Below are positions 14,167 through 62,805 of a DNA stretch of 64,000 bases, one piece after another. A program made the translations under genes and the position numbers. Within the stretch, counting starts at the first letter, position 1. Every line of letters begins with the position of its first letter. The stretch covers positions 1,024,001 to 1,088,000 of the forward strand of contig CM000435.1 of NCBI GenBank assembly GCA_000165345.1, written 5' to 3'. A model generated the notes under the pieces. The model searched no databases and had not been told where the DNA came from. It was given only the letters and a program-made list of their open reading frames with translations.

Positions 14167-17100
14167 CTATAAAAGAACCCCTTTTTGTCTCAGTCCTTTT
14201 CCTTCTGAAGCTGTTTTTTCTCCTTTATAGTTTTTCCTTCCTTTAAACTTAGTGAGTTCTAAACTTGGTTTATCGTGAATTCCTTGTCCAGAAAGTGTAT
14301 GAGAGATATGTTTACTCCCTTTGCTATATCTTTTTTCGGATGGAGACTGAATTTTTGAAAGAAAAGAGCTTTCTTGATTGCTCATCTTTTCTAATTCTGA
14401 TGCAGGACTTGCAGTTTCAATATCACACAAATTATTCTTTCTTTTAACATCTAAAATTGCTAAAGTTTGTTTTTTTACCTCTGTATTTTGGTCATCCTCA
14501 AGGTTTTTCTTCCACTTGTACCTTCTGAACCAGAATAGTATCGCTAAAATTAGCATTCCCAATATTAAGGGAGCGAATAAAATTGCATATAAAGCAGGCC
14601 CAGAAAGTCCTTTACTTTCTGATAGTTTCATTACTTGCTTCGGAACACATTCTATGATAGAAAATATGTTTGTTTCTGACTCTGAGTCCATTTCATCTTG
14701 TTCTTTAAAATTTGATCTATAAAATGAGATAGAGGGAATTTTTGGAAGTGATCCGTGAGATAGTGGTAGATTCAAACTTTCACTATATGTTATTCCATAA
14801 ACCGTTTTAAGTATTAGATTATGAATAAAGTCCATGTCATTACTTTTTGAAATAGTTACAGTATCTCCAGGTATATTATAAAAGTTCCCATTGTTACATG
14901 CCAATAGTATAGGCTCAATCTTTGCTTCATATCCTCTTGAACAAGTTACTTTAAAAACTTTCCAATCTTCACCCTTACTACTAGAAAGATCAAATAGCTC
15001 CTCAACCATGAATTTTTCAGTTCCAAGTACATTAGAAAGGAAACTTGTTCTGCAGTATTTAAGTGAAGCTTCTGCTCCTTTTACACAATTGAACCTTTCT
15101 TCAGAGTTTGATTCCCATTTTCCATTTATACATTGGAAAGTTTCAGAGTCTATTTCTGGATTGTCAGAAACATATCCAGCAGAACAAGAGATTGATCTGG
15201 TGGAACCATGATCATTTCCCACCCCACTTATAATAAATTGACTAAAAGACGAGGGAGAATTTATTTGGTTTTGATAGGGATTTAAGCTTGAATACATATC
15301 TCCACTATAACCAATATTTGTATAAAGCTGTTTTTGATTTGTGTTTGAATTATATATATATTTATTATTGTTTTTATCATCCAAATTACTCTGACCTAAA
15401 TCAGGAAGAGAAAAAGATAAAAGATTGAAAGGTTTGCATGCTTTCTTACAAAGTATTTTTGCTTCATGCTGAGTAATCCTCCATCTCCCATTATCACAAA
15501 TAAAAGGTTGAGAGGCAGGAGAAGGTGAAACTGGGTGATAATTGTAGGAACAAGCCACATTTCTAAAAGCACCTTGTTTGAGAGAGTTATCTCCATTAAT
15601 TTCATACCCTTCTTCCTGATCCTCTATTCCGAGAATTCCCAAGGATGGTTTTGGACAATTTGGAAAATCTAACTGGTTGCTTAGTGAATCCATATCAAAA
15701 GTTCCAACATATGGTGGAGGAGGAGAAATCGAAGTTGATAAAGATCTTGAATGAGAAATTGTTGATTTACTTACTTTGATTCCAAAATCTCTATCAAGAG
15801 AATCTATTTTATTCAATTCATTCGCCAACTGTTCCAATCCTTCTTCTAAAGTCATTAAAACAGTTCTAGAAGACAGTCCTGAGTCTATTAAAACTTCTAC
15901 TACATAGCTCCCAGGCCAAGCTCTGATTCTTGGGATATCAGAAATAGGAATACTCAAGAAACTACTTACTGTCTCACGAATGCTGTTTCTCAATATTTCT
16001 TCTTGAATTGAGTTTGATATTTCAAAGTAATTCAAATCCTTATAAATGAATTCTAAAATTATAAGATCAGTTTTTACTCCAGAACTACAAACTCTATCCA
16101 TGCTGAATCCACATCTTTGTTCCAAATAATCCACACTCCTTTCGCTATTCAGCTTTGGATTATCATTTTCTATCCCTAGAATTCCTCTTTGAATCTCTAA
16201 TTGTGCTGCAAAACAACATCCTCTGTTATTTAATTGATCTAATAATTTCTTCTTACAGTGTGGAGAACACCCAAAGTTTATATGGTAAGGACTACAAATA
16301 TCTTTTTGAGAAATATTTCCAAAGATTGAAGCTCTAAAGGAATCCCACCAGTCTGAACTGTTTTTTATTCCTCCAAATAGAAACTGTCCACAGAATCTAT
16401 TATTCACAGCTTCCTGGCAGAAATACCTTCCGAAAGATCTATATAATAATCCAGCTTGTCTCATTCTCAAGTTATTTGTCTCATTTCCTACTTCTAGTAA
16501 AAGTTGTCCAAAGATTCTAGTCCCAAAGAAAAGACATGAATCCTCTGGAAGATTACGAATACACATATTCATTAAGTTCTGCTTCTTTTTTGTGTCTTTT
16601 TCACTCTCCTTTTCTTTTTCATCTTTTTCTTGTATTAAGGAAAGAAGCCAATTCACTGAAGATCTGTCTGAAGCTATCATTTCTGAAACTGAATTAATAC
16701 ATGAATACTTTTCTTTTGGGTTAGAAAGACCTTTAACACTCAAACAAAGAAGATTTAATGATTTTTCACTTTGTGAAAGTATTATTTGTTTCCAGAAGCC
16801 CTCATTTATATTAGATACCCCATATAAATGATCATCTTTTGACATTTGGTATATAGAATTCTGTCTTCTAACAAAAGATCCTTCTGTTTTTTGATCTATA
16901 TCTTCGTTTTTATTCTGACCTGTAATTTTTGAAAGGTGAGATAAAGCATGTATGAGTCTTAAATTCCTTCTATGACAACTATCCTTTTTGCAAATCTCCT
17001 TTAAAGTTTTTGTTTGACCCAGAAGAAGAGAAGGTTCGTTGACAATCATCAATGTTTCATGAAAGGAGAAGGAACAAACATCTTTAAGGTCCGAAGATTG

Positions 17101-20100
17101 GCATAAATGATACTCTATAATATTTGAGATTGAATTTGCTGCGACACATTCCATTGAAAGCATATTATACTCAAGATTCCGATCCTCTATCGTAAGATCT
17201 GAAGCTTCTTTCTTATATTCATTGAGAGATTCTTTAAGTAAACTCATACATTTTCCTTTACAGAAAGTTTTAATAGTTGTATCTCTTCCTTGTCTATACA
17301 TGGTTCCACATTCCCCACCCCAAACTTCTGAGAATCTTCTAATAAGCTTACAACATTTTCCCGAGTTTTGTTGGCAATTAGCAAAATTTTCCAAAGGGAA
17401 ATTGAGAATATCCTCCTCTATCATATTAGTTGCTTGGGAAACCTTCAAAAGTCCATTTCTTCCACATGGAAGAGATTTAACAGATTCTCTATTTACCCAT
17501 TCTCCATCATTACATGTAAGAGTGACTGAGGCTTCCCTAGAGGAACATCCCACGACTAATTTAGATCCATGATTTGGAACCTCTTCCCTTAGAGAATTTC
17601 CTGAGAGAATATACTTTCCTGAGCTTTCTAATCTGAAAATAAACTCTGGATCACAGGAATTACACTTTCTACAAGAAGAACCTCCACAATCAATTCCTGT
17701 CTCATCTCCATTCTTAATCCCATCATTGCATGAAGAACAATGGTTTTCACAGCTTCCTCCACAATCAACTCCCCATTCATCTCCATTTTGGATTGAATCT
17801 TCACAGCTTGGAGCTGCACATTTAAGACTCATCCTTTCATCTGGGCCAGGAAGAGACCACTTACCATCATTACAAGCCAAGATCTGAAGTTTTGACTTAA
17901 GACTTTCATCTTGTTCCCAACCTGGAATACACCTTATATGTAATTCACTCCCAGAAGCAATTGCCATATTATCTATCAAAAGAGACTCTTTTTGAATATC
18001 CTCAATATAACTAAATCCTCCATCAACACTTAACATTGTTCCTTCTGGAAGTTTACTCAAGGGAAATCCATGACAAGGCTCACAAGTTGGACATTGACTT
18101 CCTCCACAGTCAATTCCTGTCTCATCTCCATTCTTAATCCCATCGTTACATTTGGGACAGTTTTTTGTTCCACAAGAACCTCCACAATCGATTGAGGTTT
18201 CATCTCCATTTAGAACTCCATCAAAACAGGTATCGGGACATTTCTTCTCGCAAACCCCTCCACAATCCACTCCAAATTCTCCCTGATTCTGGATTCCATC
18301 AAAACAGCTTGGTCTTTCACAAATCAATGTCGGAACCTGGAAAACACCATTATAACATTTCAAAGAATCTCTAAGTGGACCTGTTTTCCTAACATATCCT
18401 TTTTTACATCTAATCTTCACTGAATCTCCATGAACAAGCGTTCTTCTTCCTTCTCCAATATTTAAGATTTCAAAAAACTCTCTCAAAGGTTCTAGATCTT
18501 CTAAATTACAGTTTGAAAAGCAGTCGATACTTGGAATCGAAGGTTTCCACTCCCCATTCTTACAAACTATTGTTTCTTCAATATCAGAATTCCCAGGCTT
18601 TGTACAAGCTACAATACGTATATCTCCAGTATCGGCAGAGAAATCTGAATTATTTTGACTTCTAATTAGATATCTAGCTGGAAGTTTTAAAGTAGAGCAT
18701 TTTGATGCACAAATTAATACATTATCAAAGATCCACTCTCCATTAGTACAGCTTGCAGTCTGGTGAAGCTCTCCTCCTTGAATTAAGGTTCCTTGATCAG
18801 AACAGGAAATCACTAATCTCGTTCCGTGAACATACATTCCCTTCCTTTTAACTGATCCAAGCTCATTATTAATTGAATAAGCCTTGCCAAGAACTTGTTC
18901 TGGAGGTTCACAATGATTCATACAAATAGTTTTTGGAATTCCCCAAACTCCATTCAAACATTCGACTATATCATTGGTTCTAGTTCCAATTTGGACTGAC
19001 CCAAAATCCCTTTCACAAGAAATCCTAACCTTAGACCCAGGAAGGCCTCTTTCTAATGCAAGATTCTCAATTTTATAGGCTTTGTTTGAGAAAATCTCCA
19101 TATCTTTGCATTTTCTTTCACAACTAAGTTCATCAGGAAGAGAATTGGAGGTAAGTACATTTGTTGGAGACAAATCTTTGTCCAAAGCAAACCAGGAACC
19201 GTCATAACATCCAAATATAGTTTCCCCAAACTGTCCCATGGGACTCCAATTCTCTGAACATTTAATCCTCGCCATAGATCCATGTTTAAGATATCCAAAG
19301 CTTATTTCTTCACTGTAATCAATGACTAAAGACTTCTCTGAACTCACAGTAGATTCAGATATGGGAATGCATTTCTTGAAACATTTGTATTGATTCTCTG
19401 ATTCCCAACGTCCTTCACTACAAGTAATTTTGAATTCATTGTTTTCTCGATCAATTTTCATTTTCTCATCAGGATATTGAATCAACTTATCTGAATTTTT
19501 ACTACAAGAAATAGTAATTTCAGATCCTGGAGTATGTTTAACTCTGTCTTTTTCGTATTTAAAGACATAGTTTTCATTAGGGAGAGAATAAGGAGGACAA
19601 GATGTCCCACAAATTAATGTCAAAGCACTCCAGACTCCATCTTTACATGTAATCACTTCTGAGCCTTCTGTTCCAACACATTTAACTAAAAGTTTAGAAC
19701 CATTCAAATACTCTGATTCATGATCTTCAGATTCAGAGGAGGGATTTCCAGAGGCAGAATTACTTTGAATGATATAGTTCTGGCTAGAAGAAGAGGAAAT
19801 TGGGTAAGGCTTACATTTTTGGTAACAATGAATTCTTTTGATTACCTCCCATTTACCTCTGACACATCCAAAGCTTCCCACTTCCTCTGTCTCATCTTTC
19901 TTTTCATCTGAATCTTCTTGGTCTCTCTCTTGATCATGAGAAAAACTCTCCAACTCTAAAACTTTCTTTGTAGAAAAGCCTGAACTACACTTAAGTTTTG
20001 CATTAGTTCCTGGAGGAAATAATATTTGATCCGAGGATCCTCTATCGCTTCTTGGAGAATGACTATATTCTAATTGATACCTTGTGATATCATTGTGTTC

Positions 20101-49117: not shown

Positions 49118-50881
49118 ATGGAAACCTCCCAAGATGGAGACTACTGGGATGTGATTATTATTGGTACAGGGTTGATAGAATGTATTGTTGCTTCAGGCCT
49201 CTCAATGAGAGGATATTCGGTTTTAGTTTTAGAGTCAAATACCTCATATGGAGGCTTAAATAATACACTTAAACTCCCCACAGTTCATAATTGGATCTCA
49301 AACAACCCAGAACATTCAGAATCTCTATTTGAAACTTCTTCTTTCTTTGAAAAAGAGTGTGATCTTCAGTTATACTCATCACTAACTGAAGCAGAATCTC
49401 AATCTTTAAAGAATATATATGTGGATATGATGCCTAAAGTACTATTTTGTCGTGGCCATCTTGTAGAAATGATTTTATCGTGCAATATTTCTGGTTATCT
49501 AGAATTTCAAGGAATAAATGATATTTATTTTGCAGAAATTAAAGATAATGAGACATTTAGATTAACAAAAACACCATTTTCAAAAAAAGAGGTATTTTCC
49601 TCATCCGATTTGAATTTGGTAGAAAAGAGACAAGTTATGAGGTTGTACAGTGGAATTAGAGATATTTTAGAGATATCCAAAATTGAGGAAAAGGTTGATT
49701 TGGATTTGGTTTCTGATCCTTTTAGGTCCCCAGCATTAATTGTAAATTGTCAAAATAGTTCTAAAAAGGTTAATGAGAGCAATAATGACCAAACTAATCG
49801 TAACCGTAGTTTTGGTGGCAGTAGTAGAAATGCATGCATTCCTGAAGTAACTTCTTTCTCAGACTTTCAAGATTTCTGGAAAATCAATGACAGAGTGTTA
49901 AATTTAGTTAAACACAACGTAGTTTTTAGCAATTCACACCAAAACAATAATTTTGAATGGGAAAAGAACTTTACAAGGTATTTTAACCTTCTATTAAGTT
50001 CATTAAATCAACATGGATGTGTAGGAACTCCTTTTTTGTATCCAAATTATGGTACATGTGATCTACCTCAGTCATTTTCTAGACTTGCAGCAGTTAAAGG
50101 ATCTCTTCAAAGACTTGGGACAACCATTTCAACTATTCAAAAACAAGATGAAAAGGAAAAACTATGGAAAGTTCATATTAACTCAAGTAATTCAAAAGAA
50201 GTTATTAAGTGTAAGTCAATATTGGGGTCTTTAACAAATCTTTCAAAATACTTGAAGAATTCTGTAAATAATTTAATAGAAAACAAGGTTTTGTGTTATT
50301 TCATGATTTTAAATCGTCCATTAATCAAACCAAAAAACTCTCAGAATACTAAAAATCTTTGTCTCACAAGTATCCAAATTGGAGAAAACCAATTTGAGAA
50401 TAATATAGCTTATATTCTACAATGTGACTATAGTACAGGATGTTGCCCTCCTGGATATTATATTGTTTACATAAATAAGGTAATGGGAAAAGAAGAAACT
50501 ATTTTTCATGCAAGAAGTCAGGTCCAAAATGGAATTAACTCACTGTTATCTGCGAAAACAAATGATGAGACAAAGGTTTTATATAAAGCAAGTTATATTT
50601 ATATACAAAGGGTTGAGAATCCACAACAACTTGGAGACGGATTAATACTTTTGTCAGATCCATCTATTAACAACAATAGCTTCTTACTTCTGGATGAAGA
50701 TGTTGATAAAGCTTTACTAGCTCTTGATAAATCAATCAAGTTTCTAGATTCTCAACATAAGGATTATGTGACATTTAAGAACTTTTCAAATTCTAAAAAA
50801 GATCAAAAAGAAGAAAATTCAAAAATCCGAGATTCAAATAATCAATATTTTATAGAGAAGTTACAAAACATCTTAGACTAA
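49118..50881 (+). CDS. Rab GDP-dissociation inhibitor/Rab escort protein (GDI/CHM family). A long insert after the FAD/GDI N-terminal motif suggests the REP type.
   Basis: The stretch YWDVIIIGTGLIECIVASGLSMRGYSVLVLESNTSYGG matches the GDI/REP N-terminal motif [37 protein letters not shown]. The stretch MPKVLFCRGHLVEMILSCNISGYLEFQ matches GDI [26 protein letters not shown]. The protein is 587 aa, longer than a typical GDI. Confidence 0.65.
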   Translation: METSQDGDYWDVIIIGTGLIECIVASGLSMRGYSVLVLESNTSYGGLNNTLKLPTVHNWISNNPEHSESLFETSSFFEKECDLQLYSSLTEAESQSLKNIYVDMMPKVLFCRGHLVEMILSCNISGYLEFQGINDIYFAEIKDNETFRLTKTPFSKKEVFSSSDLNLVEKRQVMRLYSGIRDILEISKIEEKVDLDLVSDPFRSPALIVNCQNSSKKVNESNNDQTNRNRSFGGSSRNACIPEVTSFSDFQDFWKINDRVLNLVKHNVVFSNSHQNNNFEWEKNFTRYFNLLLSSLNQHGCVGTPFLYPNYGTCDLPQSFSRLAAVKGSLQRLGTTISTIQKQDEKEKLWKVHINSSNSKEVIKCKSILGSLTNLSKYLKNSVNNLIENKVLCYFMILNRPLIKPKNSQNTKNLCLTSIQIGENQFENNIAYILQCDYSTGCCPPGYYIVYINKVMGKEETIFHARSQVQNGINSLLSAKTNDETKVLYKASYIYIQRVENPQQLGDGLILLSDPSINNNSFLLLDEDVDKALLALDKSIKFLDSQHKDYVTFKNFSNSKKDQKEENSKIRDSNNQYFIEKLQNILD

Positions 50882-51665: not shown

Positions 51666-52008
51666 TTCTGCTGTTTTTTATGTGTGAACTTGAAGCATGC
51701 AAATTCAGATTCTTAGGTTAGGTTAACCAGAACAACTTAACTGAGGAATTTGGTTGTTGTTTTTAAATGAGTAATTCTAATTTAAAATTTTACATACGTC
51801 CCTTTTTAAATACCGTTTAAAACAACTTTTTTTTCCTTGCAATCACCAAGAAAAATTAAAAAATTATACGGGAAAAATTCAACCATTTTTTTGACAAATA
51901 TTTTTAATTAATTTAGGCGCCACATGCCATTAATAATTAGTAAATATTTACATACCGGTATTTAGTCAGAATGATAATATTTTTTTTTTAATAAATAATT
52001 AAACAATG

Positions 52009-52016
52009 TTGGCGCC
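52009..52016. promoter_or_regulatory. E2F-like TTGGCGCC motif in the RPS4 promoter region. A second copy, TTAGGCGCCA, lies at about 51913..51922.
   Basis: The strings caatgttggcgccttagg and atttaggcgccacatgcc were read directly. Confidence 0.45.
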
Positions 52017-52261: not shown

Positions 52262-53481
52262 ATGGTAAGTTAGGAGTATTTTTAAGCAAGACGAGGAAGT
52301 TTCTAACTGGAGCTTGTTAATTCTTTAGGCACGTGGTCCAAAGAAGCATTTAAAGCGTGTGGCAGCTCCATCCAACTGGATGTTGGACAAATTGACAGGT
52401 GTATATGCACCTCGTCCATCAAGTGGTCCACATAAACTAAGAGAATGTATTCCATTAGCAATTTTACTCCGTAACAGATTAAAGTTTGCTTTAACATATA
52501 CTGAAGCAAAGTATATTGTAATGCAACGTCTTATCAAGGTTGATGGTAAGGTCAGAACTGATATCTGCTTCCCATTAGGTTTGATGGATGTTGTAAGCAT
52601 TGACCGTGTTGGAAAGAATATACGTATAATGTATGATACAAAGGGTAGATTCGTACCAGTCCAAATTGATTCTAAGGAGGCAGGATTCAAGCTATGCAAA
52701 GTAACTAAGGTTGCTCTTGGAGCAAAGGGTATTCCAACTGCCACAACAAATGACGCCCGTACTTTGAGATACATCCACCCAGATGTCAAGGCAAATGATA
52801 CTGTTAAAGTTGACTTGGCCACAGGAAAGGTAAGTTGATTTAGAAAAAATTGGTTCAAATAAGGCAATGAAAGGGGTGAGACGAGGATATTTTTGGTAAT
52901 TTTTATTATATAGTCGATTTGACGTGTTGGCTTTTCGGTGATGAACAACGACTTAAATGGGAATCTCTCTTACAAACAAATAATATGGTGAGATATGGTC
53001 TCGACTTTCTGTCATGATTGTCCTGATGTTCTGCTTAAAACACGTCATTTTTGTACTTTTAGAGTTAACAAAGATTCCAATATACCCTCATATATGATTA
53101 TTGCATATTTTATAGAAAGATTTGGTATTCTTATTTCTGATTTGCCTTGAAACCAAATATACTTTACTGAACAATATTTAATTTCCCCCTTTAATATAGG
53201 TAATTGACTTTGTCAAATGTGAAGTTGGTAACATGTGTATGGTCACTGGTGGTAGATCCCAAGGCCGTGTTGGTACCATTACTCACTTTGAGAGAAAGAT
53301 GGGTGCTCAGTGCATCGTCACTATTCGTGACCAAAAAGGTGCTACCTTTGCAACTTTAATGAAGAATATCTTCGTTATTGGAGAGGAGGGCAAACCCTTG
53401 GTCACTCTTCCAAAGGATAAAGGTATTAGATTATCAAATGTGGAGGACAGAAACTTAAGAATGAAGAAGCACAGGAACTAA
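52262..53481 (+). CDS. RPS4: 40S ribosomal protein S4 (eS4) with three exons. Exon 1 is the ATG codon alone at 52262..52264. Exon 2 is 52329..52829 and exon 3 is 53200..53481. Intron 1 is 52265..52328 (64 nt) and intron 2 is 52830..53199 (370 nt).
   Basis: The junction ATG|GTAAGT....TTCTTTAG|GCACGTGGTCCAAAGAAGCAT gives [44 protein letters not shown].... This is collinear with eS4 [41 protein letters not shown]. Exon 2 ends at ...DLATGK|GTAAGT. Exon 3 follows TTAATATAG| and reads [33 protein letters not shown]..., against eS4 [33 protein letters not shown]. All junctions are phase 0. The tracked ORFs 52359..52838 and 53233..53481 are fragments of this gene. Confidence 0.85.
52922..53045 (+). 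ncRNA. Candidate intron-encoded box C/D snoRNA inside RPS4 intron 2
   Basis: A C box GTGATGA lies at about 52938..52944 and a D box CTGA at about 53023..53026, about 80 nt apart. They are flanked by an inverted repeat ACGTGTT (52922..52928) and AACACGT (53039..53045) that could form the terminal stem. The 370-nt intron is unusually long compared with the other introns here, which are 50-80 nt. Confidence 0.3.
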
Positions 53482-54266: not shown

Positions 54267-54744
54267 TCAGTTCACTATTGTAAAAGTTGCATGCTAAAAT
54301 TTAGTCATGCAAAAACAAATTTATGAATAAAATGAAAATTAATGTACTGTAGGTGGCTTTGCAGAGGGAAGAATATGGGGGAACCATCGAATAGTTGATT
54401 TTTTTTAAAATAATAGACTAGATTAACGTTATGATCTGACAATTATCTTGAATTCTGTTTGAAAAACTATTTATTAAGTTTTAAGTAAATAGCATTTCTA
54501 TTAAGCGTTGTATAATAAATATAATTTTTTCAGAAAATTCAAACATATAATAAATTACGTGTAATTACCTGTAATTTGACTGAATTTATTGAGGAAAATT
54601 ATTATTTTTTTGAATAGAAAAAAGGACTTAATTAGATTTTCACTACTAATGGAATATATTGGCTCTTTGGATAATCCATTAAGACTCATTTACTTTTCAT
54701 GCAGGTAAGAGATATTACATAGAACTCAAGGAAAATATGGAGTT

Positions 54745-55553
54745 ATGTTACTGGAAAATTATTTAGAAAATATGTAAAATCCAGTATCAGTTAATGGAAT
54801 GAATAATTCAATTTATATTTTAGAGGAACTTGTGATGTAATAAGGTTGCTGCTGGTAGACCAAGAAATACCATATGAGGGTAAGTGAAGTGAAGTCAATA
54901 TTATTATGTAATATACAATAAACTTTAATCTGAATTATAAAAATGATTGAATATTTAGAGCATAATATTTCAGGAAAAGACTTTTTACAGCCCGAGTTTC
55001 AACAAGTCCTAGTGGAATCTGGGAACTTTCCAATGCTCCCATATTTGTCAGACTCAAACAATGAAGTCGAGCTAACAGGATCATTCACAATATTAAGGTA
55101 CCTCGCAGATAAGTGTAAGTTGATGGGTAAAAGTCCTGAGGAAAGAAATAAGATAGAAAATTGGCTGGAATATCTTCAATCTTTACTACATTCAGTATGG
55201 GATTTCGAAAATATGTCAGATAATTATACAGGAATCCAACAGGCAAAGAAAAAGAGCCAGTTTCTATTAGAAACTCTTCATCCAATGCTTAAATGTATAG
55301 ATGAAAAGATTGAACAAGGAATCTGGGCTCTAGAATCCTATTCAGTAGTGGACATTGTCCTATATTCAGCAATAAGCGTGATAATTAGATCTTGGGGAAG
55401 CGATCTATTGAAACCTTATATTAGGTAAGTTATCATTGTATGGAAGGATCAGCTGTATAACTAACGAATGCCAGAATATTAACACATAAAAAGAATATGG
55501 AGAAATTGAGAAAGCAAATAGATTCGTTTAAGGATGACCCTAGACGTTTTTAA
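54745..55553 (+). CDS. Glutathione S-transferase-like protein. The proposed model has four exons: 54745..54773, 54824..54879, 54959..55424 and 55475..55553.
   Basis: Exon 3 lies inside the tracked ORF 54943..55428. It contains the GST thioredoxin-like and helical core, for example FPMLPYLSDSNNEVELTGSFTILRYLADKCKLMGKSPEERNKIENW, against GST [43 protein letters not shown]. Exons 1 and 2 give MLLENYLENI-GTCDVIRLLLVDQEIPYEG, against GST MPMILGYWDIRGLAHAIRLLLEY. The splice sites are AT|GTAAAA..TTTTAG|A, GAGG|GTAAGT...ATATTTAG|AG, and ATTAG|GTAAGT..CTAACGAATGCCAG|A, the last with a CTAAC branch point. All phases are consistent. The choice of first exon is the least certain part of the model. Confidence 0.55.
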
Positions 55554-60666: not shown

Positions 60667-62805
60667 TTACTCTGTAGAAGTTGTAGTACTAGTAGTATCC
60701 TTTGTACAACTCTTTCCGTAAATCATAAAGGAACCACCAGTTTGAGTGCTATCAACAAACATTTGAGAAACCTCAATCTTGACCTCCTTTGCAGTTAATG
60801 GGTACTGTAACATATATTTATGAGCATTTAGACTGGCAGTGTGGGCAAGAGTAAACTTCTCTTGGACGTTAGTCTCATGCATTTCATCAACTTGTTGTTT
60901 AATATACATGGTCAATGAAGCTGGCCACATTGATGGATTATCCAATGGAATATATTGGAAGTCAGTGACTTCAACAGGTTGCTTGAATTTGATGGTAATG
61001 CTCTCACCGATAGTATTTCCTACAGAAGTTTTCCAAGCTCCAAAAGGCTCATCGCGATTCTTTCCCTTTAATGCATAGATCCCATCATATTCAGGACTTT
61101 GAGAAGATGAAGACTTTACAGATTCAACAAAAGCATCAGTACTGAGGAGCTTTCTTTCTGAACATTGTGTGGTAGCTAAGGATGCTTCAGTTGGATGCTG
61201 CTTGAAGAAGAGAATGAAAGGTTTGGATTCATTAACCTTAAGAGAGATATCAGTTGCTTTTGGGATAGTTACTTGTGCAACCTTCATTGTTTGAGTTTCA
61301 ACAGCCTTGCTGGAATCAGTTTTGTCAGTCTTATAGATTGAGAATACAGAGTCAGTGTTAGTGAATTGGAGATTTTCAGCAGTGACTGGCAATTTATCAG
61401 TAACATCAGCAGCAATGAACATTGTGCATGGCTGATTAACACTAACCTTCATATTGTGTAGTTCTGGGGAAGATGATGACTTAAGCATCTTTAAGCCTTC
61501 AAATCCAGATGGTAAGTCAGCAATGAAATGGGTATTACTATCCTTGTGAGCAAATTCTCCATTTCTTAAAGTAGAGATCTCATAAAATACTGGGTTAACA
61601 CCTGAAAGTTTCAATGGTTGTCTTGGATTTCCAGTATAGAAGTATGAACTTGGGATAACCTGCTCTTGAATATTTGAAGTCTTCCACATTAATTTAATTG
61701 AGGCAATATCTGGATTTTTATATCTAAGATGACTGCTATGGAACATCTCAACTCTAATTCTATACTTTTGCCCACCAACTAATTCTTGAGCTACTGAAGT
61801 AACTTTAACTGGGCCATCATGTCTTGCATCCAATAATAATGGAACAGCTCTCTCAGAGGAGGCATCCCCAGAGGAAGGTTGTGGCATTCTGTCGATAATG
61901 ATTGCTCTTCCACCCAAGAATAATCTTGCTCCACAATCAGCTTCAATGCTGAAGTAGTATCTTCCAGACTCAGGAGCAAGTAAAAATCCGTCCCATCTGA
62001 TGGAAAATTGCTGATTTGGAACACCCTCAATCGGGTCCTTTGAAATATACATCATATTAATATTTCTATCATTTCTATAATTTCTTGGAGCACCATCAAA
62101 CTTTGGATTGTCATAATATGACCCTCTTAAACCATCTGGGAAAGGAATATCTTCATATCCTGGTAACAACTCACAGTTTTCTGGTCTGCTCAAAGCAAAG
62201 TCACGATCTCTTACGATATCTTTTTCTAATTCATCAATGCTTGTTTTTAAAACATCAACCTTTGTAATTGATTCTTCAATCTTATTCAGGCAATGCTGAC
62301 CTTTCTGAATTAATGACTCAATATTGTCCAATCTACTGCTTACTATTGATTGCTGAGAACCACAAGTACTGTTGTATCTCTCAAGCAAGTCTGTTAATCT
62401 TGAAGCTTGGTTATCTAATTGATTTGCAATCTTAGCTGATTCTCTTGCCTTGACTTCAAAAATCTCATTTGCCTTTGTACGGAGCATATCATAGTTCACA
62501 ACAGGTAAGCAGTAATTCCAGTTCTTTGAACCTTGGGATGCTACCTGTGGCTCAACATAACACCACTCTCTTCCAGAAGTCCCATCTGGAGACTTTGCTA
62601 TTGTACAATCTGTATATGTCTGGAAATCCTGTACAAATACTGCAGAACAGAGTCTTCCATCTACTGTTCTCCTAAATTGTTGTCTATACTGAGCAAGCTC
62701 CTGAAGAAGCTGCGAAGTTGGTGCTTGTTGAGTTGTTTGGCTCAAAGCATTTCCTGCCAATAATATGAAGCTTAGGCCTTTAAATACACCCTTGAATTTC
62801 AACAT
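60667..62805 (-). CDS. Secreted multidomain protein with a fibronectin type II-like module, a coiled coil and a PA14 (anthrax protective antigen N-terminal-like) domain. Its architecture matches apicomplexan FNPA/CCp5-type adhesion proteins.
   Basis: The tracked ORF ends at 62979 with a GTG start. An in-frame ATG at 62805 gives MLKFKGVFKGLSFILLAGNALSQ, a signal peptide. The FN2-like stretch is CSAVFVQDFQTYTDCTIAKSPDGTSGREWCYVEPQVASQGSKNWNYC. A heptad-rich coiled-coil region follows. The PA14-like stretch is GSYYDNPKFDGAPRNYRNDRNINMMYISKDP......FSIRWDGFLLAPESGRYYFSIEADCGARLFLGGRAIIIDRM. No TM segment is present. An alternative earlier ATG (M11, about 62949) lies within a TGCATGC-rich promoter-like segment. 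Confidence 0.6.
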   Translation of the reverse strand: MLKFKGVFKGLSFILLAGNALSQTTQQAPTSQLLQELAQYRQQFRRTVDGRLCSAVFVQDFQTYTDCTIAKSPDGTSGREWCYVEPQVASQGSKNWNYCLPVVNYDMLRTKANEIFEVKARESAKIANQLDNQASRLTDLLERYNSTCGSQQSIVSSRLDNIESLIQKGQHCLNKIEESITKVDVLKTSIDELEKDIVRDRDFALSRPENCELLPGYEDIPFPDGLRGSYYDNPKFDGAPRNYRNDRNINMMYISKDPIEGVPNQQFSIRWDGFLLAPESGRYYFSIEADCGARLFLGGRAIIIDRMPQPSSGDASSERAVPLLLDARHDGPVKVTSVAQELVGGQKYRIRVEMFHSSHLRYKNPDIASIKLMWKTSNIQEQVIPSSYFYTGNPRQPLKLSGVNPVFYEISTLRNGEFAHKDSNTHFIADLPSGFEGLKMLKSSSSPELHNMKVSVNQPCTMFIAADVTDKLPVTAENLQFTNTDSVFSIYKTDKTDSSKAVETQTMKVAQVTIPKATDISLKVNESKPFILFFKQHPTEASLATTQCSERKLLSTDAFVESVKSSSSQSPEYDGIYALKGKNRDEPFGAWKTSVGNTIGESITIKFKQPVEVTDFQYIPLDNPSMWPASLTMYIKQQVDEMHETNVQEKFTLAHTASLNAHKYMLQYPLTAKEVKIEVSQMFVDSTQTGGSFMIYGKSCTKDTTSTTTSTE

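Follow-up and report, generated by a model that had tools for sequence, protein, structure and literature searches.

A putative U79-like box C/D snoRNA in the second intron of Cryptosporidium parvum RPS4, a gene with an ATG-only first coding exon

The closest described counterparts of the element reported here are the box C/D small nucleolar RNAs (snoRNAs) of the U79 type. According to the literature, SNORD79/U79 guides the modification Am3809 of human 28S ribosomal RNA (rRNA; Am3830 in the newer numbering). CD14 of Neurospora crassa is an intronic RNA whose D' guide forms a 10-bp duplex without mismatch, and the paper describing it gives 'U79' as the homologue in Arabidopsis and human and none in either yeast. 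For the apicomplexan Cryptosporidium parvum, Li et al. (2022; PMC9465071) reported six C/D snoRNAs, namely U3, SNORD36, SNORD96 and three new ones. Their survey contains 23 intronic small RNAs, 4 of which are snoRNAs and 19 of which have no assigned function, and the authors suggest that intronic RNAs may exert a selective pressure that keeps some introns in the intron-poor genome. Here we analyzed a window of 64,000 nucleotides (GenBank assembly GCA_000165345.1, contig CM000435.1, positions 1,024,001 to 1,088,000 of the forward strand; all positions given below are window positions) and in it the gene RPS4, which encodes the ribosomal protein eS4 at 52262-53481 on the plus strand. We propose, with a probability of roughly 0.85, that RPS4 is a three-exon gene with an ATG-only first coding exon and that its second intron hosts a U79-like C/D snoRNA which guides methylation of the large subunit (LSU) rRNA. 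Such an RNA would be the same kind of element, in the same organism, as the intron-encoded snoRNAs of Li et al. (2022).

The second intron spans 52830-53199 on the plus strand (370 nt, phase 0, GTAAGT...ATAG) and lies between K168 and V169. An earlier note on this DNA had described this phase-0 intron of 370 nt and had supposed that its length betrays a payload; a predicted box C/D snoRNA that is conserved throughout the genus is indeed found inside. The intron is about four times as long as the mean C. parvum intron of about 86 nt, a value which we derived from 1370 introns making up 1.29% of the genome (PMC9465071, Table 1) with the genome taken as about 9.2 Mb. It is thus an outlier, as claimed, but the accompanying statement that all other introns of the window measure 50-80 nt was too strong, since the neighboring gene at 54649-55553 has an intron of about 118 nt.

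The predicted snoRNA lies in sense orientation at about 52921-53046 and measures about 89 nt from C box to D box and about 126 nt with its flanking stem. The C, D', C' and D boxes follow each other in canonical order and spacing. The C box GTGATGA (52938-52944) is followed after a 12-nt spacer by the D' guide ATGGGAATCTCT (52957-52968), which contains the core AUGGGAAUCUCU. Directly adjacent is a degenerate D' box, CTTA (52969-52972), at the position of the CUGA in the SNORD79 consensus; it reads CCTA in C. bovis and CGGA in the gastric species. The C' box ATGGTGA (52985-52991) corresponds to TGATGA in the gastric species and to TGAGGA in C. bovis and C. ryanae. The D box CTGA is located at 53023-53026. 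The boxes are enclosed by a terminal stem with the 5' arm GACGTGTTGGC (52921-52931) and the 3' arm GCT-TAA-AACACGTC (53033-53046). The element thus has both the C and D boxes with a stem and the internal D' and C' boxes at fixed positions that define box C/D RNAs.

We compared the locus across 11 Cryptosporidium loci, those of C. parvum, a C. hominis-like genome, C. meleagridis, C. ubiquitum, C. canis, C. felis, C. bovis, C. ryanae, C. muris, C. andersoni and C. serpentis. Three sequences are invariant in all 11 species, TGATGA at the C box, ATGGGRATCTC at the D' guide and CCTGA at the D box. In the cross-species alignment the block from C to D box is the only conserved island of intron 2. Its identity to C. 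parvum ranges from 0.70 to 0.96, compared with 0.27-0.96 for the flanks of the intron, and in the comparison with C. muris the block retains 0.70 and the flanks only 0.27-0.34. These values bear on the simplest alternative, namely that the intron is long by neutral expansion only and that the C/D-like motifs arose by chance. The flanks do vary widely in length between lineages (the whole intron measures 177-391 nt), and their rate of change is similar to that of intron 1, as neutral expansion would have it. A block that is 70% identical between C. parvum and C. muris between flanks of 27-34% does not fit this explanation, nor do boxes and a guide which we take as invariant across the 11 species. 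The conservation pattern effectively refutes it, and we give it practically no weight. For the 3' half of the intron we also considered a further snoRNA or a coding exon and rejected both: this part shows no conservation beyond close relatives, and intron 2 contains no open reading frame (ORF) of more than 51 amino acids.

The flanking stem is formed by GACGUGUUGGC (52921-52931) and GCU-UAA-AACACGUC (53033-53046). It is extended and bulged, comprises 11 bp and is set off from the boxes by about 5 nt. Among the six parvum-type species, 89% of the cells are paired, compared with 36-50% when the partner strand is slid. Compensatory changes occur in C. meleagridis and C. ubiquitum. Three pairs are altered on both sides, for example from A-U to G-C in C. 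meleagridis, and the observed covariation score was reached by 3 of 500 shuffles. The duplex energies also beat those of shuffled sequences in the parvum-type species. The other lineages have a stem just as far from the boxes, but of unrelated sequence (for example UGUAUAC/GUAUACA in the gastric species), and the support from shuffling is weak there. Since the stem was modeled on C. parvum and few sequences were compared, we grade it as supported and not as proven. The whole fold shows no unusual stability (z = -0.89), as is expected for a C/D snoRNA.

A conserved stem around a conserved block would also be expected if the island were a structured cis-element of the RPS4 pre-mRNA, either a splicing regulator or an autoregulatory site for eS4, from which no stable RNA is released. 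Intronic structures serve the autoregulation of ribosomal protein genes in other organisms, and the RNA is known here from its sequence and not from its expression. A cis-element, however, gives no reason for invariant RUGAUGA and CUGA motifs at the spacing of a snoRNA or for an invariant 10-nt complement to rRNA, and the ordinary stability of the whole fold also speaks for a C/D snoRNA. Moreover, in small RNA sequencing of C. parvum, introns account for 5.35% of the mapped reads but only 1.29% of the genome, and the 23 intronic non-coding RNAs come from these data (PMC9465071). We therefore consider a pure cis-element very improbable.

The D' guide points to a defined target of the snoRNA. 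Positions 52958-52967, that is, positions 2-11 upstream of the D' box, match a single site of the LSU rRNA, GAGAUUCCCA, in an unbroken run of 10 Watson-Crick pairs. The fifth nucleotide upstream of D' is U52964, and by the box+5 rule it selects the last A of CGAGA in the context CGAGA-UUCCCAC. The same adenosine is selected with the guides of C. parvum, C. bovis and C. muris; for C. muris one pair becomes a G-U wobble. The sole variation of the guide across the 11 species is an A to G change, which keeps the pairing as a G-U wobble. A control in which only Watson-Crick pairs counted gave a perfect match to LSU plus small subunit (SSU) rRNA for 22 of 5000 shuffled 10-mers; with G-U pairs counted as well, a shuffle control gave 274 of 500 and did not discriminate. 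The expected LSU context, which we take to be that of yeast 25S rRNA, occurs in at least 120 rDNA contigs from environmental metagenomes. Pairing of at least 10 nt with the target at the fifth nucleotide was found on the generic eukaryotic LSU rRNA of contig L019, which according to Rfam carries a full-length eukaryotic LSU rRNA together with an SSU rRNA. We infer that the selected LSU adenosine corresponds to A3809/A3830 of human 28S rRNA, an equivalence based on the identity of the guide with that of SNORD79 and on our own calculation of the offset between yeast and human numbering. A 2025 review states that the targets of rRNA modification in Cryptosporidium are not experimentally confirmed.

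The similarity to SNORD79 also appears in Rfam searches. In a permissive scan of the locus the best match was SNORD79 (RF00152) with 25.8 bits and E = 0.17; it comprises 14 consecutive identities to the SNORD79 guide, and the D' boxes of the two coincide in position. The C. bovis locus again gave SNORD79, weakly, with 18.7 bits. A scan of the whole window at gathering thresholds returned no matches, and in the permissive scan of the whole window the snoRNA was lost, as E-values rise with the length of the sequence searched. That permissive scan gave only two matches, both weak and far below the gathering scores, rli43 at 17060-17241 (E = 0.05) and SCARNA7 at 61637-61757 (E = 0.74), both probably due to chance.

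How close, then, is the RPS4-intron RNA to SNORD79? Both are box C/D snoRNAs with the functional guide 5' of D', both are encoded in introns, one per intron, the Rfam consensus has the same guide core AUGGGAAUCUCU, and the predicted LSU adenosine is the same. With CD14 of N. crassa the RNA shares the D' guide, the 10-bp duplex without mismatch and the intronic location. It differs from SNORD79 in its D' box, CUUA instead of CUGA, in its extended bulged stem of 11 bp about 5 nt outside the boxes and in its host, which is a ribosomal protein gene in C. parvum and non-coding for SNORD79, for example an intron of human GAS5. The D' guide is directed to the equivalent of A3809/A3830, as in SNORD79, with the map between the numberings inferred. 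Because the Rfam score stays below the threshold, we describe the RNA as apparently isofunctional with U79 and not as a proven member of the SNORD79 family. Common descent and convergence cannot be told apart here, since a shared target forces identity of the guide.

It could also be that a real box C/D RNA is encoded here and that its match to the U79 site is incidental. The RNA would then be an orphan, act via its D guide on another RNA or assist the folding of pre-rRNA. Such a reading would accommodate a degenerate D' box, an Rfam score under the threshold and a D-guide region that is well conserved in the parvum-type species although it has no clean rRNA target. It does not account for the D' guide being the most conserved element apart from the boxes across the 11 species, with a single variation that preserves pairing as a G-U wobble. 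A Watson-Crick match of 10 bp is rare for shuffled guides, as the control given above shows, and the box+5 position hits precisely the site at which SNORD79 and CD14 of N. crassa act with the same D'-guide design. In addition, the substitutions in the D guide strike core positions in three species. An incidental match therefore appears improbable to us.

The region 5' of the D box (53003-53022) is a potential D guide without a convincing conserved target. It is well conserved within the parvum-type species and unrelated in sequence in the lineages of C. bovis and of the gastric species. Its best duplexes with rRNA are imperfect and comprise 8-9 bp. In C. canis (position 5), C. felis and C. ubiquitum, core positions of the pairing are substituted. 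We rejected this region as a confident second guide, because the duplexes are imperfect and the substitutions mostly break them.

A separate observation concerns the gastric species. In the intron 2 sequences of C. muris (L003 3636-3715) and of the loci L010 and L013, a D-box guide UCAUUCACAGACUAUC pairs over 9 bp with the SSU rRNA sequence GGUCUGUGA. The best weak Rfam match of C. muris intron 2 is snR56 (18.1 bits, E = 4.2), and there is also a weak match to SNORD29. In our reading, the box+5 position of the gastric guide lies one nucleotide 3' of the snR56/U25 site. The pairing could be a lineage-specific second target or chance. More speculatively, the RPS4-intron RNA would be a so far unclassified snoRNA, the C/D repertoire would be substantially under-annotated, and the second guide would perhaps direct lineage-specific modification of rRNA or of other RNAs. 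We regard this extended idea as unlikely, if with some small chance of being right. If it were true, a single host intron would combine one guide that stays fixed with another that evolves.

Several points count against a U79-like snoRNA in intron 2. The D' box (CUUA, CCUA, CGGA) and the C' box (UGGUGA, UGAUGA, UGAGGA) are degenerate, though this is common in eukaryotes. The SNORD79 score of 25.8 bits in C. parvum is below the gathering threshold of 47 bits, and SNORD79 was recovered neither in a permissive Rfam search of four loci nor in C. muris. The stem is not significant compared with shuffles in C. bovis and C. ryanae. The covariation test comprises six related sequences; it was restricted to these species because MAFFT could not align the flanks of the stem across clades. 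The target was examined on the generic eukaryotic LSU rRNA of L019 as a proxy for Cryptosporidium rRNA, and the alignment of yeast and human numbering is our own. Finally, a stable RNA from 52921-53046 is a prediction from the sequence.

Our preferred explanation, a U79-like methylation guide, suggests the following steps. The snoRNA would be co-transcribed with RPS4. After splicing, the lariat would be debranched, and exonucleases would trim the intron up to a small nucleolar ribonucleoprotein (snoRNP) formed on the C/D kink-turn, the assembly of which could be aided by the 11-bp stem, which holds the C and D boxes next to each other. The mature snoRNP, which would contain fibrillarin as its methyltransferase, would shield the RNA, and the D' guide (UGGGAAUCUC) would pair with the LSU rRNA at the site given above. 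2'-O-methylation would then take place at the A opposite the fifth guide nucleotide 5' of D', the last A of GAGA in GAGA-UU. As the host is a highly expressed ribosomal protein gene, the supply of the snoRNA might be coupled to ribosome production. The snoRNA cargo probably explains why intron 2 is kept, and why it is long, in an intron-poor genome.

The host locus is the single-copy eS4 (RPS4) gene of C. parvum on chromosome 7. We checked all coordinates by direct reading and by scripted splicing and translation of the window sequence. Of exon 1 only the initiator ATG (52262-52264, plus strand) is coding; it directly abuts GTAAGT, and the 5' untranslated region (UTR) lies upstream. Intron 1 (52265-52328) has 64 nt and phase 0, with GTAAGT at its 5' end, CTAAC at 52303-52307 and TTTAG at its 3' end; by direct reading this end is TTCTTTAG. 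Exon 2 (52329-52829) codes for residues A2-K168, in translation identical to the annotated protein P0122, and exon 3 (53200-53481) for V169-N261 and the TAA stop codon. The spliced coding sequence of 786 nt from three exons yields a protein of 261 amino acids that matches P0122, '40S ribosomal protein S4' of C. parvum/C. hominis, exactly. A protein search groups the product with the Cryptosporidium eS4 cluster at 99.6-100% identity. The identity to animal and fungal eS4 is about 60% across 98-100% of the length, and the Pfam domains RS4NT, Ribosomal_S4e, KOW and 40S_S4_C are recorded for the product.

The earlier note had deduced this three-exon structure, with the methionine supplied by the ATG at 52262 next to GTAAGT, and every coordinate of it held; the structure reproduces the annotated protein exactly. 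Its description of exon 1 as a microexon of 3 nt is right for the coding part only; the term is a misnomer, because the exon must also include the 5' UTR. The initiator methionine might instead come from elsewhere, either from another upstream exon or from an unspliced start. We found no support for this, apart from an older eS4 record of C. parvum Iowa II that is labeled 'partial' and comprises 260 amino acids without the initiator methionine. The frame of exon 2 is closed by stop codons immediately 5' of 52329, and 52262 is the only ATG within the 160 nt preceding exon 2. According to our reading of the sequence, the remaining upstream ATGs have no in-frame donor. Present-day annotations begin RPS4 at exactly the ATG at 52262, and the ATG|GTAAG junction is kept in 13 apicomplexan loci, the 11 of Cryptosporidium together with those of Neospora caninum and Theileria equi. 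Another origin of the methionine is hardly credible in our view.

The earlier note had proposed a comparison of orthologous RPS4 loci for the ATG exon, and the exon is present in all of them. ATG|GTAAG is found 61-90 nt 5' of exon 2 in 11 of 11 Cryptosporidium species, with an intron 1 of divergent sequence in between. All 11 species also have the phase-0 intron after ...TGK. An A precedes the ATG at position -3 in the 11 species as well as in Neospora and Theileria. N. caninum RPS4 likewise starts with ATG|GTAAG and has a phase-0 intron of 276 nt at the identical position TGK|IVD, but unlike C. parvum it has two further introns, and its intron 1 is 1279 nt long. T. equi RPS4 also starts with ATG|GTAAG, followed by a first intron of 104 nt, but has this intron only. 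Judged from these sequences, the conservation of the ATG|GTAAG start is far beyond chance. Both intron positions are thus old apicomplexan features, since they are also present outside the genus, in another apicomplexan class. The ATG-only start is not confined to intron-poor protists, for which the note had called such first exons a known feature; it is also found in intron-rich Neospora and in Theileria.

The snoRNA does not share this distribution. At the RPS4 loci of Neospora and Theileria neither the guide, scored by a regular expression for the guide, nor any strict C/D motif was found. The association of RPS4 with the snoRNA is therefore seen only in Cryptosporidium. The long intron 1 of Neospora RPS4 (L134 1504-2782) was negative in a search for strict C/D motifs; H/ACA or other RNAs were not searched for.

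The gene model including the ATG-only start is already public. A stretch of 7220 nt around the gene is 100.000% identical to contig CP141124.1 of GCA_035232765.1, the telomere-to-telomere assembly of C. parvum IOWA II 'CpBGF', which was annotated with PacBio Iso-Seq (PMC12179316). There the annotated gene span (L005 3001-4220) equals 52262-53481, with a product of 261 amino acids. Other records are faulty. That of C. hominis TU502 is split into fragments of 82 and 152 amino acids, and those of C. canis (312 amino acids), C. felis (195) and C. andersoni (243) are of the wrong length. The loci with faulty public models that we fetched (L004, L010, L011) all show ATG|GTAAG and the phase-0 intron. 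The ATG-only first exon has thus repeatedly broken automatic annotation, with one partial, one split and three wrong-length models in five Cryptosporidium genomes.

Immediately upstream of RPS4 lies the gene of Rab GDI (49118-50881), which is cgd7_4740 in the literature and which assigns RPS4 to chromosome 7. Judged from the numbering of the identifiers, RPS4 is probably about cgd7_4760. In the divergent intergenic region upstream of RPS4 there are two GGCGCC palindromes, at 51916-51921 (TTTAGGCGCCACAT) and 52011-52016 (TGTTGGCGCCTTAG), 346 and 251 nt 5' of the ATG. Both are retained in the C. hominis-like genome, C. meleagridis, C. ubiquitum, C. canis and C. felis; C. ryanae has one copy, and upstream of RPS4 in C. 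bovis, the gastric species, Neospora and Theileria they are absent. They resemble the E2F-type promoter motif reported for C. parvum. Antisense to exon 2 and extending into intron 2 runs an ORF of 207 amino acids (52325-52948, minus strand), which we interpret as a shadow ORF of a highly biased coding strand and not as a gene. The downstream neighbor at 54649-55553 (plus strand), annotated with 218 amino acids, has three introns of about 118, 80 and 48 nt, and its gene models vary by assembly (218, 213 and 186 amino acids).

Which part of this is new? The 2025 review lists five C/D snoRNAs of Cryptosporidium (cgd2_3583, cgd5_3935, cgd6_3219, cgd7_1545 and cgd7_5107) and as H/ACA snoRNAs cgd5_1585, cgd7_2033, cgd7_3425 and cgd7_5104. 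No identifier in this list is near cgd7_4740-4760. The RNA in the RPS4 intron thus carries no snoRNA annotation; it may be one of the 19 unclassified intronic RNAs of the 2022 survey, or else it is uncatalogued. The gene model is known, and ribosomal protein genes are classic hosts of intronic C/D snoRNAs; what appears to be new is the assignment of this particular snoRNA.

Overall, this is ordinary biology with a useful gain in annotation. Outliers in intron length combined with cross-species conservation can recover snoRNAs that are missed by Rfam thresholds. The pair of guide and target offers a concrete prediction of a 2'-O-methylation site in the ribosome of an important pathogen, although the significance is modest. 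The locus also offers a concrete case for the view that, in a genome from which most introns have been lost, some are preserved by the snoRNAs they carry.

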